Origin: Escherichia coli
GTDB taxonomy: Bacteria; Pseudomonadota; Gammaproteobacteria; Enterobacterales; Enterobacteriaceae
Strand: one strand, 5' to 3'
Assembly (NCBI RefSeq): GCF_024502345.1
Contig: NZ_JALDNN010000001.1
DNA length: 64,000 nt
The notes beneath the pieces were generated by a model. It was given only the letters and a program-made list of their open reading frames with translations, was not told the origin of the DNA and searched no databases. Positions 28,926-39,501 of this stretch are shown one piece after another. Numbering within the stretch: the first letter of the stretch is position 1; each line of letters begins with the position of its first letter. The position numbers and the translations under genes are program-made.

Positions 28926-30187
28926 CGAACACTCCTGATAACATCGCCCGCCAGATGCCACAGGCCATGACGACGTAAATGACGCCAGAGTAACTGGCGC
29001 AGCGGTGGAACAGGTTTATCACCCTGATCCCATAAATCGCGGGAAATATCCTGCATTAACGCAGGCCACGTACGGTACCATCCCGGGCGTTGCAAAAGCG
29101 CCGGAACATGCTGATAACGCTGTAGAACATCCCACAGCAGGCTGCGCTCGACGTTGTGATGATAAAGCGGAAACAGATTTTGCGGCTCGCGGTGCTGGCA
29201 GGCGCTTATCAGTGTTTGTGCCGCCGCCTGCGCGCCAGTTAGCGCCGTATCCATGCCGCGCACGGAAATTCCGGTATTGACGCAACTGCGCAACGCATCG
29301 CCTACCAGCAGCCAGCCGTTACCGGCGTATTGCACTGGCATACTGTGCAAGCCACCTTCTGGCACCAGATGCGCACCATACTCCAGTGATTCCGTGTTTT
29401 TGATAAGCGGGCGCACTGCCGGATGCGTTTTAAAGCGAGCCAGCAGCTCGCTTGCCGGAACACGACTTTGCGTAAGGGAAGAGAGCGGGCAAACAATCCC
29501 TAACGAGAGCGTTTGTTGATTAGTATAAAGAAATGCGCCGCCGGGAAAGTCATCACAGATTCCGCCGCTGAACAGCAACGCTGCGCCTTCGTTATTCTCC
29601 AGATGAAAACGTTCTTCAATAGCGGATGTTTCCAGCGACAGCACTTCTTTGATCCCCAACGCCATCGCTTCGCCAGCAGGACGAGTCACTAATCCGTGAC
29701 GTTCAGCCAGGACGCTGTTGGCACCTTCTGCCAGCACCACATAACGGGCGCGGAGAATATCGTCACCACAAATGACACCACACACCCTGCCGTTTTCTTC
29801 ATACAGTGCATTCACCGTCGCTCCGGGGATGCATTCGACACCTTCTTTTTCGGCTTCGGCAACCAGCCACGGATCGAACCGTGCACGTAATACACTCCAG
29901 GATTCACCGCCGGGCTGTAAGCTGGAAAATGTCGTTACGCCATCGGGCGTTAACAGGGAAAGGCTTTCGTGAGTGATGCGTCGTTCAAGAGGCGCGGTCA
30001 GATGAAATTGCGGGAGGAGTTCCGCGAGTGCATGGGTATATAACCGCCCGCCGGAAAGATTTTTGCTGCCGGGGATTTCAGCGCGTTCCAGTAACAAAAC
30101 GGATAAACCCGCTCGCGCGCAGCGTAACGCGCAAGCGGTGCCTGCAATACCGGCACCAATAATAATAATGTCGCAGTCGTCTTCCAT
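28916..30187 (-). CDS. ygcN: FAD-dependent oxidoreductase (FixC-like)
   Basis: Start at MEDDCDIIIIGAGIAG (423 aa); N-terminal FAD-binding GxGxxG. Confidence 0.78.
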   Translation of the reverse strand: MEDDCDIIIIGAGIAGTACALRCARAGLSVLLLERAEIPGSKNLSGGRLYTHALAELLPQFHLTAPLERRITHESLSLLTPDGVTTFSSLQPGGESWSVLRARFDPWLVAEAEKEGVECIPGATVNALYEENGRVCGVICGDDILRARYVVLAEGANSVLAERHGLVTRPAGEAMALGIKEVLSLETSAIEERFHLENNEGAALLFSGGICDDFPGGAFLYTNQQTLSLGIVCPLSSLTQSRVPASELLARFKTHPAVRPLIKNTESLEYGAHLVPEGGLHSMPVQYAGNGWLLVGDALRSCVNTGISVRGMDTALTGAQAAAQTLISACQHREPQNLFPLYHHNVERSLLWDVLQRYQHVPALLQRPGWYRTWPALMQDISRDLWDQGDKPVPPLRQLLWRHLRRHGLWHLAGDVIRSVRCL

Positions 30188-30264
30188 GTCATGCCCCAGA
30201 TATCCAGAACACAACACCCTAACATAGCGTTACTTAAGGGAAATTGACCGCCGACACACTCTTA

Positions 30265-30630
30265 TCATTCGCCGCGATAGATACAACCAGCGGTGCAGGT
30301 TTCTTTTACCATCACCGCACTTAACAGCGGCACAACGGGTTTAACCTGATCCCAAATCCATTTTGCTAAAACTTCGCTGGTCGGGTTTTCCAGGCCTGGA
30401 ATATCATTGAGATAATGGTGATCGAGGCGCTCATAAGTTGGCTTAAACGCTGCTTTCAGTTCAGCGAAATCGATAACCCAGCCCGTATGCGGATCGACTT
30501 CCCCGGTAATTTCCAGTCGCACCATAAAGGAATGCCCGTGCAGGCGACCACATTTATGCCCTTCCGGGACGTGTGGTAAGCGGTGAGCGGCTTCGAAGGT
30601 GAAATCTTTAAATAACGTGGTGGACATCAT
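30265..30630 (-). CDS. queD: 6-carboxy-5,6,7,8-tetrahydropterin synthase
   Basis: Start at [10 protein letters not shown] (121 aa); conserved His residues and CGRLHGHSF motif; the track ORF is extended upstream. Confidence 0.88.
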
Positions 30631-30945
30631 AATTTCTCTACAGGACGATAAAACCGCCGTAGAGTACCGGAAAGGCTGTTTTTTCGCATTATCTAAAACG
30701 ACTTTGTTGCGCAAAATCGCTGATTTATCTTAATGATTGGCTAAATTCATTTGTTTTTCATTAGGTTGGTTAATCTATTTTGTTGTTAAAGACTATTGCT
30801 AAAACAGGTTAGTCGATTTGGTTATTAGTTATCGCTATCCCGTCTTTAATCCACACCGTTCACCCCGTTAACCTTACCTTCTCTTCTGTTTTATGGGCGC
30901 TGACAGGGCGCAGAAACAGCTTTGCTTACTGGAACATAACGACGC

Positions 30946-32745
30946 ATGACGACACAGGTCCCACCTTCCGCGTTGCTTCCGTTGAACCCGGAGCAACTGG
31001 CACGCCTTCAGGCGGCCACGACCGATTTAACTCCCACCCAGCTTGCCTGGGTTTCTGGCTATTTCTGGGGCGTGCTCAATCAGCAGCCTGCTGCGCTTGC
31101 AGCAACGCCAGCGCCAGCCGCAGAAATGCCGGGTATAACTATTATCTCCGCCTCGCAAACCGGCAATGCGCGCCGGGTTGCTGAAGCATTACGTGATGAT
31201 TTATTAGCGGCAAAACTGAACGTTAAGCTGGTGAACGCGGGCGACTATAAATTCAAACAAATCGCCAGCGAAAAACTGCTTATCGTGGTGACGTCAACGC
31301 AAGGAGAAGGGGAACCGCCGGAAGAAGCCGTCGCGCTGCATAAGTTCCTGTTCTCCAAAAAAGCGCCGAAGCTGCAAAACACCGCATTTGCCGTGTTTAG
31401 CCTCGGCGATAGCTCTTATGAATTTTTCTGCCAGTCCGGGAAAGATTTTGACAGCAAGCTGGCGGAACTGGGCGGTGAACGCCTGCTCGACCGTGTCGAT
31501 GCCGACGTTGAATACCAGACCGCTGCCAGCGAGTGGCGCGCTCGCGTGGTTGATGCGCTTAAATCGCGTGCGCCTGTCGCGGCACCTTCGCAATCCGTCG
31601 CTACTGGCGCGGTAAATGAAATCCACACCAGCCCGTACAGCAAAGACTCGCCGCTGGTGGCGAGCCTCTCTGTTAACCAGAAAATTACCGGGCGTAACTC
31701 TGAAAAAGACGTTCGCCATATCGAAATTGACTTAGGTGACTCGGGCCTGCGTTACCAGCCGGGTGACGCGCTGGGCGTCTGGTATCAGAACGATCCGGCA
31801 CTGGTGAAAGAACTTGTCGAACTGCTGTGGCTGAAAGGCGATGAACCTGTCACCGTCGAGGGCAAAACGTTGCCTCTGAACGAAGCGCTACAGTGGCACT
31901 TCGAACTGACCGTCAACACCGCCAATATTGTTGAGAACTATGCCACGCTTACCCGCAGCGAAACGCTGTTGCCGCTGGTGGGCGATAAAGCGAAGTTACA
32001 GCATTACGCCGCGACTACGCCGATTGTCGATATGGTGCGCTTCTCTCCGGCGCAACTGGACGCCGAAGCGCTGATTAATCTGCTGCGCCCGCTGACGCCG
32101 CGTCTCTATTCCATCGCCTCCTCGCAGGCGGAAGTCGAGAACGAAGTACACGTCACCGTTGGTGTGGTGCGTTACGACGTGGAAGGCCGCGCCCGTGCCG
32201 GTGGTGCCTCCAGCTTCCTCGCGGACCGCGTGGAAGAAGAGGGCGAAGTTCGCGTATTTATCGAACATAACGATAACTTCCGCCTGCCCGCTAACCCGGA
32301 AACCCCGGTGATTATGATTGGCCCAGGCACCGGCATCGCGCCGTTCCGCGCCTTTATGCAGCAGCGCGCCGCTGACGAAGCGCCGGGTAAAAACTGGCTG
32401 TTCTTTGGCAACCCGCATTTTACGGAAGATTTCCTCTACCAGGTGGAGTGGCAGCGCTACGTCAAAGAGGGCGTGCTGACACGTATCGATCTCGCCTGGT
32501 CGCGCGATCAAAAAGAAAAAGTTTACGTACAAGACAAACTGCGCGAACAGGGCGCGGAGCTGTGGCGCTGGATCAATGACGGTGCCCACATTTATGTCTG
32601 CGGCGACGCTAATCGCATGGCGAAAGACGTTGAGCAGGCACTTCTGGAAGTGATTGCCGAATTTGGTGGCATGGACACCGAAGCGGCGGATGAATTTTTA
32701 AGTGAGCTGCGCGTAGAGCGCCGTTATCAGCGAGATGTCTACTAA
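30946..32745 (+). CDS. cysJ: sulfite reductase [NADPH] flavoprotein alpha component
   Basis: 599-aa ORF with flavodoxin-like and FAD/NADPH-binding domains; the cysI start overlaps its stop. Confidence 0.95.
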
Positions 32746-34457
32746 TGAGCGAAAAACATCCAGGGCCTTTAGTGGTCGAAGGAAAACTGACAGACGCCGA
32801 GCGCATGAAGCTTGAAAGCAACTACCTGCGCGGCACCATTGCGGAAGATTTAAACGACGGTCTGACCGGCGGCTTTAAGGGCGACAACTTCCTGCTGATC
32901 CGCTTCCACGGCATGTATCAGCAGGATGACCGCGACATCCGCGCCGAACGTGCTGAACAGAAGCTGGAGCCGCGCCACGCGATGCTGTTGCGCTGCCGTC
33001 TGCCGGGTGGGGTGATTACCACTAAACAGTGGCAGGCGATCGACAAATTTGCCGGTGAAAACACCATCTATGGCAGCATTCGCCTGACCAACCGCCAGAC
33101 GTTTCAGTTCCACGGCATTCTGAAAAAGAACGTCAAACCGGTGCACCAGATGCTGCACTCGGTCGGTCTTGATGCGCTGGCGACCGCTAACGACATGAAC
33201 CGTAACGTACTCTGCACCTCGAACCCTTACGAGTCGCAGCTACACGCGGAAGCGTATGAATGGGCGAAGAAAATCTCTGAACATCTGCTGCCGCGTACCC
33301 GCGCGTATGCGGAGATCTGGCTCGATCAGGAAAAAGTCGCCACCACCGATGAAGAACCGATCCTCGGCCAGACCTACCTGCCGCGTAAATTCAAAACCAC
33401 GGTAGTGATCCCGCCACAGAACGATATCGATCTGCACGCCAACGACATGAACTTCGTGGCAATCGCCGAAAACGGCAAGCTGGTGGGCTTTAACCTGCTG
33501 GTGGGCGGTGGGCTTTCCATCGAACACGGCAACAAGAAAACCTACGCCCGCACCGCGAGTGAGTTTGGCTATCTGCCGCTGGAGCATACGCTGGCAGTGG
33601 CGGAAGCCGTCGTGACAACTCAGCGTGACTGGGGTAACCGAACCGATCGTAAAAATGCCAAAACCAAATACACGCTGGAGCGCGTGGGGGTTGAGACGTT
33701 TAAAGCGGAAGTGGAGCGTCGCGCGGGGATCAAATTCGAGCCGATTCGCCCGTATGAGTTTACCGGACGCGGAGATCGTATTGGCTGGGTTAAGGGCATT
33801 GATGATAACTGGCACCTGACGCTGTTTATCGAAAATGGTCGCATCCTTGATTATCCGGGGCGTCCGCTGAAAACCGGCCTGCTGGAGATCGCGAAGATCC
33901 ACAAAGGCGATTTCCGCATTACGGCGAACCAGAATCTGATCATCGCCGGTGTGCCGGAAAGCGAGAAAGCGAAGATCGAGAAGATCGCTAAAGAGAGCGG
34001 GTTAATGAATGCCGTCACGCCGCAGCGTGAAAACTCAATGGCCTGCGTGTCATTCCCGACTTGCCCGCTGGCGATGGCGGAAGCGGAGCGTTTCCTGCCG
34101 TCTTTTATCGACAACATCGATAATTTAATGGCGAAACATGGTGTCAGCGATGAGCATATCGTGATGCGTGTAACAGGCTGCCCGAACGGTTGTGGTCGCG
34201 CGATGCTGGCGGAAGTGGGCCTGGTGGGTAAAGCGCCGGGTCGCTACAACCTGCATCTTGGCGGCAACCGTATTGGGACACGTATCCCACGGATGTATAA
34301 AGAAAACATCACCGAGCCGGAAATCCTGGCGTCGCTTGATGAACTGATAGGGCGCTGGGCGAAAGAGCGCGAAGCGGGTGAAGGCTTCGGCGACTTTACG
34401 GTGCGTGCGGGCATCATTCGCCCGGTGCTCGATCCGGCGCGCGATTTGTGGGATTAA
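32745..34457 (+). CDS. cysI: sulfite reductase [NADPH] hemoprotein beta component
   Basis: 570-aa ORF with siroheme/4Fe-4S cysteine motifs (CVSFPTC, TGCPNGC). Confidence 0.95.
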
Positions 34458-34472
34458 CCATCAGCCCGGTCT

Positions 34473-34509
34473 TGTAGGCCTGATAAGACGCGTGAGCGTC
34501 GCATCAGGC
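34473..34509. repeat. REP element
   Basis: gtaggcctgataagacgcgtgagcgtcgcatcaggc between cysI and cysH. Confidence 0.7.
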
Positions 34510-34530
34510 AAGGCAAACAGTGAGGAATCT

Positions 34531-35265
34531 ATGTCCAAACTCGATCTAAACGCCCTGAACGAACTGCCGAAGGTAGATCGCATTCTGGCGCTGGCGGAAA
34601 CTAACGCCCAACTGGAAAAACTGGACGCTGAAGGCCGCGTAGCTTGGGCGCTGGATAATCTGCCCGGTGAATATGTACTTTCTTCCAGCTTTGGCATTCA
34701 GGCGGCGGTGAGCCTGCATCTGGTGAATCAAATTCGCCCGGATATTCCGGTGATCCTCACCGATACCGGTTACTTGTTCCCGGAAACCTACCGCTTTATT
34801 GACGAGTTAACGGACAAACTCAAGCTCAACCTGAAAGTGTACCGTGCTACCGAAAGCGCAGCCTGGCAGGAAGCACGCTACGGAAAACTGTGGGAACAGG
34901 GCGTTGAAGGCATTGAAAAGTACAATGACATCAACAAAGTCGAACCGATGAACCGGGCGCTGAAAGAACTTAACGCGCAAACGTGGTTTGCTGGCCTGCG
35001 CCGTGAACAATCCGGCAGCCGCGCCAATTTACCGGTGCTGGCAATTCAGCGTGGCGTATTTAAAGTGCTGCCGATTATCGACTGGGATAACCGAACGATA
35101 TATCAGTATCTGCAAAAGCATGGCCTGAAATATCACCCATTATGGGACGAAGGATATTTATCGGTGGGCGATACCCATACAACCCGTAAATGGGAACCCG
35201 GCATGGCGGAAGAAGAAACGCGTTTCTTTGGCTTAAAAAGGGAATGTGGGTTACACGAAGGGTAA
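34531..35265 (+). CDS. cysH: phosphoadenosine phosphosulfate (PAPS) reductase
   Basis: Start at [14 protein letters not shown] (244 aa); C-terminal ECGLH motif. Confidence 0.93.
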
Positions 35266-35281
35266 ATATTGTCGGATAAAT

Positions 35282-35320
35282 TAAACGCCTCTGTCAGAAA
35301 TGATGGGGGCGTTTTTATTT
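35282..35320 (+). terminator. rho-independent terminator after cysH
   Basis: aaacgcc ... ggcgttt stem followed by ttttatttt. Confidence 0.55.
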
Positions 35321-35528
35321 TGCGAGCAGCATTCCTGATTTTAAACGTGAACGCCGCTGGAAGAATTATCAGGTATAGAATGGCGTCGGGTGCTTGAGGC
35401 TGTCTGGCGTTAAGCATTCGCGAGGTTCCAGATGGACAAAAGCCCCAGGCGATATTTCTATCAACCTGAGGCTCGCGTTCGAACGTAGCAATTCGAATGT
35501 TAGTCTCTTCTTTGCAGGGAGGCAAGAC

Positions 35529-35681
35529 ATGCTGACAAAATATGCCCTTGTGGCAATCATAGTGCTGTGTTTTACAGTACTGGGATTCACGCTGATGGTA
35601 GGCGACTCGTTGTGTGAGTTGAGTATCAGAGAACGTGGTATGGAGTTTAAGGCTGTTCTCGCTTACGAATCGAAGAAGTAG
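35529..35681 (+). CDS. hokX: Hok/Gef-family type I toxin (small membrane peptide)
   Basis: 50-aa [53 protein letters not shown]: single TM helix plus the family C-terminal pattern SLCEL-IR--G-E--A-LAYES; the symbol is my recollection for this position. Confidence 0.7.
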
Positions 35682-35687
35682 CCACCA

Positions 35688-35716
35688 CGCGGGGGTAAAA
35701 CCCCGCGTATTGAATT
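35688..35716 (+). terminator. hairpin terminator after the hok-like ORF
   Basis: cgcgggg-gtaaaa-ccccgcg stem-loop followed by tattgaatt. Confidence 0.5.
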
Positions 35717-35870
35717 GTGATGGTTTGGTCTCCTGCACCCTTTTTTAAATTTATATTTTTTATGTGAATATATTGTCTCTATTTATTATTATGAATTTCA
35801 AATGAAAATCATAAATTTATTCACAATATAAATGTTTTATTGGCTGATATATATCACAGATAATTTTTAA

Positions 35871-38135
<2,265 letters not shown>

Positions 38136-38231
38136 GTTAGACGTTCTTTAAAAATAAGGAAATGTTTTAATTTAGTTGGTAGATTGTTGATGCGGAATAA
38201 ATTTGTTTAAAAACAGTTATGTATGCTTAGT

Positions 38232-38443
38232 GTGTTCCCCGCGCCAGCGGGGATAAACCGGGGCCGACGGTCGCAGTATTGGACCATTTCAAGTGTTCCC
38301 CGCGCCAGCGGGGATAAACCGACTCTTACATGCTTAATCAGATTCTGGCGGATGTGTTCCCCGCGCCAGCGGGGATAAACCGGGCGCACTGGATGCGATG
38401 ATGGATATCACTTAGAATTCCCCGCCCCTGCGGTAGAACTCCC
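38232..38443 (+). CRISPR. short type I-E CRISPR array: 3 intact repeats, 3 spacers and a degenerate terminal repeat
   Basis: GTGTTCCCCGCGCCAGCGGGGATAAACCG at 38232, 38293, 38354; 32-bp spacers; degenerate repeat gaattccccgcccctgcggtagaactccc at 38415-38443; truncated leader 38136-38231. Confidence 0.92.
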
Positions 38444-38463: not shown

Positions 38464-39501
38464 TCAAGACGCCTTCGCCAGCTCCTTCACCAACGGTAGC
38501 ATTATCCGCATAACGTCACGGCAGCGACGTTCTATTCTTCCAGGAAGTGCCTTATCAATATGCTGTTGATTATCCAGTCTTACGTCATGCCAGCTATTTC
38601 CCGCAGGGAATGCGGCTGTTTTTGCGCGTTGCTGATAACCATCCTTATTCCCAAGATTCCAGTTAGTCGCTTCCACCGAAAGTACAGCAATGCCCGCTTT
38701 GTCGAATATTTCTGCGTCATTACAACACCCAGTGCCTTTCGGATAATTTTTATTCAGACTCGGATTGGTCGTTGCGGCTATTCCGTGACTGCGCGCAATT
38801 GCCAGCGCCCTGTCGCGCGTTAATTTCCTTACTGATTCAGGGGTTTTTACACCGCTGTTGAAATACAATTTATCGCCAACAATTAAGTTATCGAGATTAA
38901 TCACCAGCAGCGTATTTTTCTTTTCGGTGTCACTCATCCGCTTGAGTAAATTCTCAGCGCCTAATTTCCCTTCCTCTTCGCCGCTGGTCGCCACAAATCG
39001 AATACCATACTCGGTAGGCGTATTTTTCAGGCGTTCTGCCAGTTCCAGCATGACACCTAAACCTGCGGCGTTATCATCCATTCCTTGTAACGTCAGCCCG
39101 CCGAGATTGGCATCGGCGTCAGCATCGCTCAGCGGGGCGTAAGTATCCAGATGCGCCATAATGATGATCTGCTGCGGCGCTTTGCCTTCATGAGCGGCAA
39201 TCACCGTACTTCCCGTCACGTTATGCCAGCTCTTACGATTATCGCGGGCGGTATAAATATACCGACTATTAAATGTCCGAATATCACTGCGATAACCCAT
39301 TTGCTGAAACTGTTGGCGAATATAATCGGCAGATAACATTTCTGCAGGAGTTCCGGTCATGCGTCCCGGAAAGAAAGTAGCAATATGTCGTGCCTGAGTA
39401 TTAGCAAAATCGCCAGGTTTAGGTGACGAGGCGTGTACGGGGAGAATAAAGCATACGCCGAGCGCCAGGGCAGCGGTACGGTGGCGCAATGCGGAAAACA
39501 T
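38464..39501 (-). CDS. iap: alkaline phosphatase isozyme conversion aminopeptidase
   Basis: 345-aa ORF with signal peptide and M28-type metallopeptidase features; position next to the array and cysD. Confidence 0.88.
   Translation of the reverse strand: MFSALRHRTAALALGVCFILPVHASSPKPGDFANTQARHIATFFPGRMTGTPAEMLSADYIRQQFQQMGYRSDIRTFNSRYIYTARDNRKSWHNVTGSTVIAAHEGKAPQQIIIMAHLDTYAPLSDADADANLGGLTLQGMDDNAAGLGVMLELAERLKNTPTEYGIRFVATSGEEEGKLGAENLLKRMSDTEKKNTLLVINLDNLIVGDKLYFNSGVKTPESVRKLTRDRALAIARSHGIAATTNPSLNKNYPKGTGCCNDAEIFDKAGIAVLSVEATNWNLGNKDGYQQRAKTAAFPAGNSWHDVRLDNQQHIDKALPGRIERRCRDVMRIMLPLVKELAKAS

Follow-up and report, generated by a model that had tools for sequence, protein, structure and literature searches.

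A probable hokX/sokX type I toxin-antitoxin locus, structurally complete, between cysH and a reduced CRISPR-Cas locus on an Escherichia coli chromosome

A short open reading frame for a putative Hok/Gef membrane toxin lies between cysH and cas3 on an Escherichia coli chromosome, which raises the question whether it belongs to an intact, antisense-controlled type I toxin-antitoxin system and whether its position beside a reduced CRISPR-Cas locus has any meaning. The stretch of DNA analysed (64,000 nucleotides of contig NZ_JALDNN010000001.1, assembly GCF_024502345.1; hereafter the window) has the gene order cysH, hokX, cas3, iap (Table 1). The gene cysH ends at 35265, the hokX ORF begins 263 nt downstream and the cas3 ORF starts 192 nt beyond it, in line with the position between cysH and cas3 given in the original prediction. 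With a probability of roughly 85%, the locus is a structurally complete copy of the chromosomal hokX/sokX type I toxin-antitoxin system of E. coli, which by analogy would work like hok/sok. The core of the original prediction, namely that an undamaged Hok/Gef gene encodes a type I toxin, has a structured leader and is accompanied by an antisense Sok RNA, was borne out by Pfam, Rfam, the alignment with sokX and the RNA folds, all of which agree.

Table 1. Features of the hokX/sokX locus and its surroundings in the window.
Feature	Position	Strand	Evidence or remark
cysH terminator	35283-35314		promoter/terminator scan
putative hokX promoter, -10 TAGAAT	35376..35381	+	read from sequence; 7 nt before predicted 5' end
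predicted full-length hokX mRNA, ~359 nt, 5' end GGGUGC	35388..35746	+	MFE and consensus folds
tac-like 5' element GGGUGCUUGAGG	35388..35399	+	invariant in 12 orthologues; pairs with 35727-35740
conserved hok leader, Rfam RF01794 'sok' match	35388..35544	+	106.7 bits
sokX antisense RNA gene, ~59 nt: 5' single-stranded tail, long hairpin, U-rich 3' end	35432..35490	-	K-12 sokX alignment
leader hairpin complementary to SokX main stem-loop, predicted Sok target	35442..35472	+	helix 4, consensus fold
putative sokX promoter: -35 TTGCCT (35520-35525), 17-nt spacer, -10 TAACAT (35497-35502)	35497..35525	-	read from sequence
12-codon mok-like leader ORF (uORF)	35497..35535	+	sequence; out of frame with hok
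upstream box GUCUCUUCUUUG, ucb/dcb-type long-range helix	35503..35514	+	pairs with 35671-35682 (hok ORF end)
hokX Shine-Dalgarno GGGAGG, 6 nt before ATG	35517..35522	+	paired in predicted full-length fold, helix 7
hokX toxin ORF, 50 aa	35529..35681	+	Pfam PF01848, HokE similarity, WP_000956460.1 identity
stable 3' stem-loop after stop	35687..35708	+	helix 15: 8 pairs, 100% of cells paired
fbi-like 3' element GGUCUCCUGCACCC, complementary to 5' end	35727..35740	+	MFE and consensus folds
cas3 ORF, truncated, 753 aa	35874-38135		versus 899 aa in the full-length E1-type gene (L012)
three type I-E CRISPR repeats	38231-38384		directly after cas3
iap	38464-39501	-	

The hokX/sokX locus between cysH and CRISPR-Cas/iap is already described, named and automatically annotated, and is no new finding. 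The toxin gene was named hokX and placed in the cysH-iap region (PMC7232551); hok and sokX were reported beside cysH in 90% of 237 urinary isolates, the remainder carrying sokX alone like MG1655 (PMC12736100); and a 'hok sok system', stated to occur in every E. coli but those with the K-12-type cas-E2 variant, served as a landmark for the CRISPR-I locus (PMC3903273). The position beside the type I-E CRISPR-Cas of E. coli is thus published. At the same site, the K-12 annotation holds the antisense RNA gene sokX (b4701). The window interval 35270-35880 gave a megablast match in 5,425 of 5,426 complete E. coli genomes, and the best full-length match among them differs from the window allele by about 1.5% over 611 bp. 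In those matched genomes that have the ORF, it is annotated as 'Hok/Gef family protein' and located between cysH and cas3 or iap. The peptide is identical to WP_000956460.1, which bears the same annotation, and was found on at least 1000 contigs of the protein collection. Judged roughly from 30 evenly spaced megablast matches, about three quarters of the complete E. coli genomes carry the ORF; an intact hokX is the common state of the species and no exception. The order of cysH, hokX and the iap side is the same in eight comparison loci (L001, L009, L010, L012, L133, L041, L078 and L107). A PADLOC search for a defence-system annotation returned no match, and no experiment on HokX toxicity or its control by SokX was found in the searchable literature.

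The predicted 50-codon ORF is present with exactly the expected peptide, and its membership in the Hok/Gef family is well founded. HokX matched Pfam HOK_GEF (PF01848) with an E-value of 3.5e-11, residues 5-46 covering the entire model (1-42 of 42). The scores for the NCBIfam equivalog HokA (NF007290; 57.7 bits, cut-off 89) and the NCBIfam Hok subfamily NF007279 (41, cut-off 73) are both below the curated cut-offs, which places HokX outside these two groups. An assignment to HokA, the top NCBIfam match, was rejected because of this score and because HokE is much closer: among the K-12 proteins, HokE shares 39 of 50 residues (78%), HokA 25 of 50 (50%) and HokB, HokC and HokD only 16-19. Homologues encoded on plasmids are about 40-43% identical, and the one retrieved is an SrnB-type toxin of an IncF plasmid. 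On its sequence, HokX is therefore placed with HokE-type proteins in a branch of its own within the Hok/Gef family. The PROSITE-type signature of the family, a single N-terminal hydrophobic helix with a conserved L-[CY]-E region behind it, was matched as a regular expression by HokX residues 10-29 and by all five K-12 Hok proteins, and every residue of the Hok motif, including the cysteine of L-C-E, is present in HokX.

The leader upstream of the ORF was matched by the Rfam model RF01794 on the plus strand over its full length (model 1-157; gathering score 59, E-value 4.4e-25). This model is named 'sok antitoxin', yet it fits the sense strand, that is, the 157-nt leader of a hok mRNA, while Sok itself is about 59 nt long and lies on the opposite strand. 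Annotations based on RF01794 can therefore be wrong in strand and length, as in the case of a 152-nt 'sok_15/sokX' (PMC5331693). In O157 EDL933, the leader region was reported to be transcribed with low ribosome coverage (PMC5331693). The position of the hokX -10 box was deduced from the start of the Rfam match at 35388 and from the 5' end GGGTGC, which is found in 12 of 12 orthologues. The hokX promoter is probably weak, since it has no good -35 hexamer. Neither of the two promoters (hok and sok) appeared in the output of a consensus promoter/terminator scan, which also found no hokX terminator, so that both promoter assignments rest on homology, position and conservation. The 3' end of the mRNA was tentatively placed at the run of six U after the fbi-like element; this end is uncertain because no terminator hairpin follows fbi in the E. 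coli alleles. Between it and the cas3 start lies a very AT-rich spacer of about 130 nt (35741-35873), presumably the cas3 promoter region, containing an 8-bp inverted repeat (TGTGAATA and TATTCACA, at about 35763-35770 and 35818-35825).

In the minimum free energy fold of 35388-35752 (-131.7 kcal/mol, z -3.9), the 5' end is closed onto the 3' end by pairing of GGGUGC..GAGGCU with GGUCUC..GCACCC (35727-35740). Such a tac/fbi closure is a defining trait of hok mRNAs (PMC9841398). A consensus fold (RNAalifold) was calculated from 12 full-length sequences, namely the window, five other Escherichia, three Kluyvera, a Pluralibacter MAG, an Enterobacter MAG and 'Escherichia sp. ESNIH1'. It contains the closing helix, two leader hairpins, the long-range helix between 35503-35514 and 35671-35682, a paired Shine-Dalgarno sequence and the 3' hairpin. 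In this alignment of related sequences from five genera, six of which are nearly identical and from which the structure itself was derived, 97.2% of the cells are paired, compared to 35-46% when the 3' partners were slid by 1-3 columns, and 13 compensatory pairs were counted versus 0-4 in the slid controls. The tac/fbi helices 1 and 2 (10 pairs) are paired in 100% of the cells, with one compensatory change from G-C to A-U and four wobble changes; the long-range helix 6 (10 pairs) is paired in 97.5%. The GC-rich hairpin predicted behind the ORF was found as a stem of 7-8 bp (35687/35688-35694 with 35701-35707/35708) and a GUAAAA loop. It was not retained as a terminator, for there is no U-run behind it and the fbi element follows further downstream; by analogy with R1, it is probably the 3' end of the processed, active mRNA. 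The span of 35394-35716 originally assigned to the feature is too short: the transcript likely begins at 35388 and must reach fbi.

The antisense Sok RNA expected on the other strand is represented by sokX, with 51 of 53 positions identical between K-12 sokX (b4701) and the minus strand of the window from 35490 to 35432. In the fold of SokX (-23.7 kcal/mol, z -3.46), a long hairpin with interruptions is flanked by a 5' tail and a U-rich 3' end; the RNA has been detected in K-12 datasets (PMC7580957). The minus strand was searched for a Sok-like promoter, as had been suggested, and the putative hexamers TTGCCT and TAACAT at 17-nt spacing were found. Both are kept in 12 of 12 orthologues (with one TACCAT variant); with a score of 8/12 to the consensus, this promoter falls below the threshold of the scan, which accounts for its absence from the list. 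The -35 hexamer overlaps the hok Shine-Dalgarno sequence, and the predicted start near 35490 agrees with the mapped 5' end of K-12 sokX. Helix 4 of the consensus fold lies within the region antisense to sokX; it comprises 11 pairs, is paired in 99.2% of the cells and shows no compensatory change, ten of the 11 pairs never varying.

Upstream of the toxin ORF, a leader ORF of 12 codons reads through the hok Shine-Dalgarno sequence and ends with a TGA (35533-35535) overlapping the hok start (AUGCUGA). It is kept in all Escherichia and Kluyvera alleles examined, and in two alleles its stop is TAA owing to a change that is synonymous in hok. K-12 hokE, the Enterobacter MAG and ESNIH1 have this upstream ATG in the hok frame, while the uORF of Pluralibacter has five codons. 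No recognisable Shine-Dalgarno sequence precedes the uORF, and its ATG is read on the other strand as part of the sokX -10 hexamer; conservation of the uORF may therefore not reflect translation. In plasmid R1, mok needs to be translated only as far as the hok start (PMC9841398), which means that the short uORF of hokX could serve as a mok. A coupling role of the uORF in hok translation is an inference by analogy with R1. The original prediction had instead pointed to about 130 nt of in-frame leader. The hok frame of the window is indeed open upstream to TTG 35394, giving a mechanical ORF of 95 aa with no internal start codon; as a family feature, however, this did not hold up and is a chance opening, seen in two of 14 alleles. 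Besides the window, just the O157 allele has this frame open through the leader, which in both is shorter by one base. In-frame stops before the conserved upstream ATG are found in nine of the 12 other alleles (eight of ten hokX-type alleles and the IS-disrupted L009), the ones without them being K-12 hokE, Kluyvera genomosp. 1 and genomosp. 3. A 95-aa in-frame Mok starting at TTG 35394, in the manner of the mokC and mokA annotated in K-12, was rejected, as this codon lies 6 nt from the mRNA 5' end, no internal start exists and most of the other alleles examined carry in-frame stops.

The window copy keeps promoter, tac, leader, sokX, ORF, hairpin and fbi; it was rightly regarded as undamaged, having neither the ORF deletion of K-12 nor an IS421 or ISEc60 in the 3' hairpin. 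Lesions of these kinds are found in other strains. In K-12-type genomes (L002/L003), similarity ends exactly after the hok ATG (window 35529-35531). There, the hok ORF and the 3' elements are replaced by the upstream region of a cas-E2-type cas3, leaving sokX and its promoter as an orphan antitoxin. The post-stop hairpin contains IS421 in strain Z1323CEC0010 (L009, 3413-3606) and ISEc60, with no cas3, in FDAARGOS_943 (L133, 1236-1342), and IS186 sits at the equivalent point in K-12 hokE (L004, about 1500) and hokC (L005). The hokX of E. coli B is disrupted by an insertion element (PMC7232551), and one sampled genome has lost the whole hokX locus together with cas3. In the above 30 matches, taken as a rough sample, about 13% end in the hairpin and about 20% show the K-12 deletion. 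IS4-family elements have thus inserted repeatedly into the GC hairpin after the stop, in at least three hok loci, each time severing fbi; this helps explain the disruption of hok loci and of neighbouring cas genes. Because all regulatory elements lost in K-12 and several other strains are kept, the window copy would be a suitable natural template for an activity test of a chromosomal hok. The discovery value of the locus is small, with some modest value in its details.

Orthologues were sought with a 16-nt leader motif (GATATTTCTATCAACC) in genome contigs (298 Gb). At least 120 loci were obtained, mostly by chance, and since the pattern is too short for 298 Gb and the loci given are incomplete, the scan is no census. 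A tblastn screen of the motif loci yielded eight HokX-type loci from Escherichia, Kluyvera, Pluralibacter and an Enterobacter MAG; with hokB-type loci included, nine contigs were usable. In the same screen, E. coli E69 (L032, 1601-2225) was found to carry two tandem hokB-like ORFs about 500 bp apart, one with an R-to-P exchange. The order cysH-hok-iap is common to Escherichia sp. E1V33, Kluyvera genomosp. 1, K. intermedia and the Pluralibacter MAG. All 14 ORFs examined are intact and 50 codons long. Nei-Gojobori dN/dS values relative to the window were 0-0.22 for orthologues and 0.36 for the paralogue hokE, in short sequences in which constraint on RNA structure also lowers dS. The low dN/dS, the 14 of 14 intact ORFs and a synteny older than Escherichia argue against a decaying relic. 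With respect to the strain itself, cysJIH (window 30000-35300) is 99.9% identical to FDAARGOS_943 and FDAARGOS_944 (NZ_CP065615.1 / NZ_CP065613.1), followed by at most 98.8% for the next-best among the matches listed, with 5,421 of 5,425 genomes in the 95-99% band. The same two strains differ structurally downstream of hokX, where they carry ISEc60 and no cas3. The window thus stems from an E. coli lineage that is sparsely sampled among complete genomes, and it is mosaic at this point.

A functional model can build on what was observed: the sequence elements with their homology, and a fold that is conserved and shows covariation. By analogy with hok/sok of R1, a weak promoter would give rise to the hokX mRNA of about 359 nt, which would be closed by tac/fbi pairing with the ribosome-binding sites of leader ORF and hok buried, allowing neither translation nor antisense binding. 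Slow 3' trimming to the hairpin at 35687-35708 would remove fbi, the RNA would refold and its 5' end would be freed. The 12-codon leader ORF would then be translated across the hok ribosome site to the hok start, and the 50-aa membrane toxin could be made. From the opposite strand, a stronger promoter would supply the short, unstable SokX RNA, which would bind the mRNA leader immediately before the leader ORF, block translation and lead to cleavage by RNase III. Under this antisense control by SokX, which we infer, toxin would be made only once the supply of SokX stops. The steps of 3' processing, refolding, translational coupling and RNase III decay, as well as the toxicity, are transferred from R1 hok/sok.

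A different reading of the same elements is that hokX is structurally intact but functionally silent, harmful toxin levels never being reached on account of a weak promoter, a permanent excess of SokX or poor initiation at the leader ORF; the locus would then persist through inertia, or because cells that lost sokX before hok would die. The hok promoter without a -35 hexamer and the uORF without a Shine-Dalgarno sequence would fit such silence. So would the many lineages that have lost or disrupted hokX with no obvious cost (K-12 deletion, IS insertions, complete loss) and the over-expression of SokX, which gave no phenotype in a K-12 screen (PMC4606813). Moreover, the chromosomal hok loci of K-12 were reported to be non-functional (Pedersen and Gerdes 1999, as cited in PMC7232551). 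Permanent silence is nevertheless judged improbable, because a gene never expressed would not be expected to keep its ORF (intact in all 14 alleles, from five genera), its low dN/dS and the compensatory changes in its RNA; the synteny, which predates the genus Escherichia, speaks against it as well.

The other reading, put forward in the original prediction, concerns the neighbourhood: acting as an addiction element, hokX would stabilise the CRISPR-Cas DNA next to it. Plasmid hok/sok does stabilise its replicon by post-segregational killing (PMC9841398), and hokX is physically next to cas3. The description of this neighbour as gutted was accurate, as the window retains the shortened cas3 and a 3-repeat array, while casA-E, cas1 and most of cas2 are missing. 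A similar cas3-repeats-iap arrangement is covered to at least 80% by 45 of 5,426 complete E. coli genomes, with 93-95% identity among the closest matches listed. The comparative loci, however, show hokX in all cas states: L001 and L012 have complete cas operons next to it, L010 and L133 have iap but no cas genes, and the window has the truncated cas3 with its three repeats. Since hokX adjoins every one of these states, adjacent cas genes must have been deleted repeatedly while hokX stayed. In addition, hokX occupies the cysH-iap gap in Kluyvera and Pluralibacter loci in which no match to cas3 was found, and a chromosomal deletion that takes out hok with sok, or hok alone as in K-12, goes unpunished by the system. 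The idea that hokX is specially linked to a gutted cas locus was therefore rejected, and stabilisation of CRISPR-Cas DNA is hardly credible; the link is positional and as such already described (PMC3903273). For the preferred reading, a complete hokX/sokX system of the chromosome, a more specific form can be proposed only tentatively: hokX may use the 12 codons as a natural minimal 'mok', with termination and reinitiation at AUGCUGA in place of a long mok overlapping hok, and the locus may have been settled in the cysH-iap gap before Escherichia, Kluyvera and Pluralibacter diverged and have been kept under purifying selection. If so, a chromosomal role such as phage exclusion or stress-induced dormancy would be indicated, as opposed to the decay of a plasmid relic.

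Compared to the hokX/sokX loci described in E. coli, the window locus shows no difference of kind: position, protein (WP_000956460.1), sokX, leader and 3' elements are alike, and its allele is undamaged in contrast to that of K-12 with its deleted ORF and to those of E. coli B, L009 and FDAARGOS_943, which carry an IS in or near the 3' hairpin. The closest paralogue, K-12 hokE/sokE, shares the leader architecture, the position of Sok relative to the hok start and the 3' hairpin. It is located elsewhere (ybdK-entD) and has lost fbi to IS186. Furthermore, the upstream ATG of hokE is in frame and adds an N-terminal extension of 12 residues, whereas that of the window is out of frame and the reading stops on the hok start. 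With hok/mok/sok of plasmid R1, the window locus has in common a toxin of about 50 aa, the tac/fbi closure, a leader ORF, an antisense RNA to the leader and a hairpin after the stop (PMC9841398). In R1, mok has 70 codons and overlaps hok, while the leader ORF of the window has 12 codons; the window leader is also shorter (hok AUG at +142), and no separate terminator hairpin follows fbi. R1 is a plasmid, whereas the window locus is long resident on a chromosome, where post-segregational killing makes no obvious sense. The srnB/srnC systems of IncF plasmids likewise encode a Hok/Gef protein (about 43% identity over 49 residues) and are laid out in the same way overall, with the GGGTG 5' end and the GC hairpin after the stop; they differ in being plasmid-borne and, for srnB, in an upstream ATG that is in frame with the toxin ORF.
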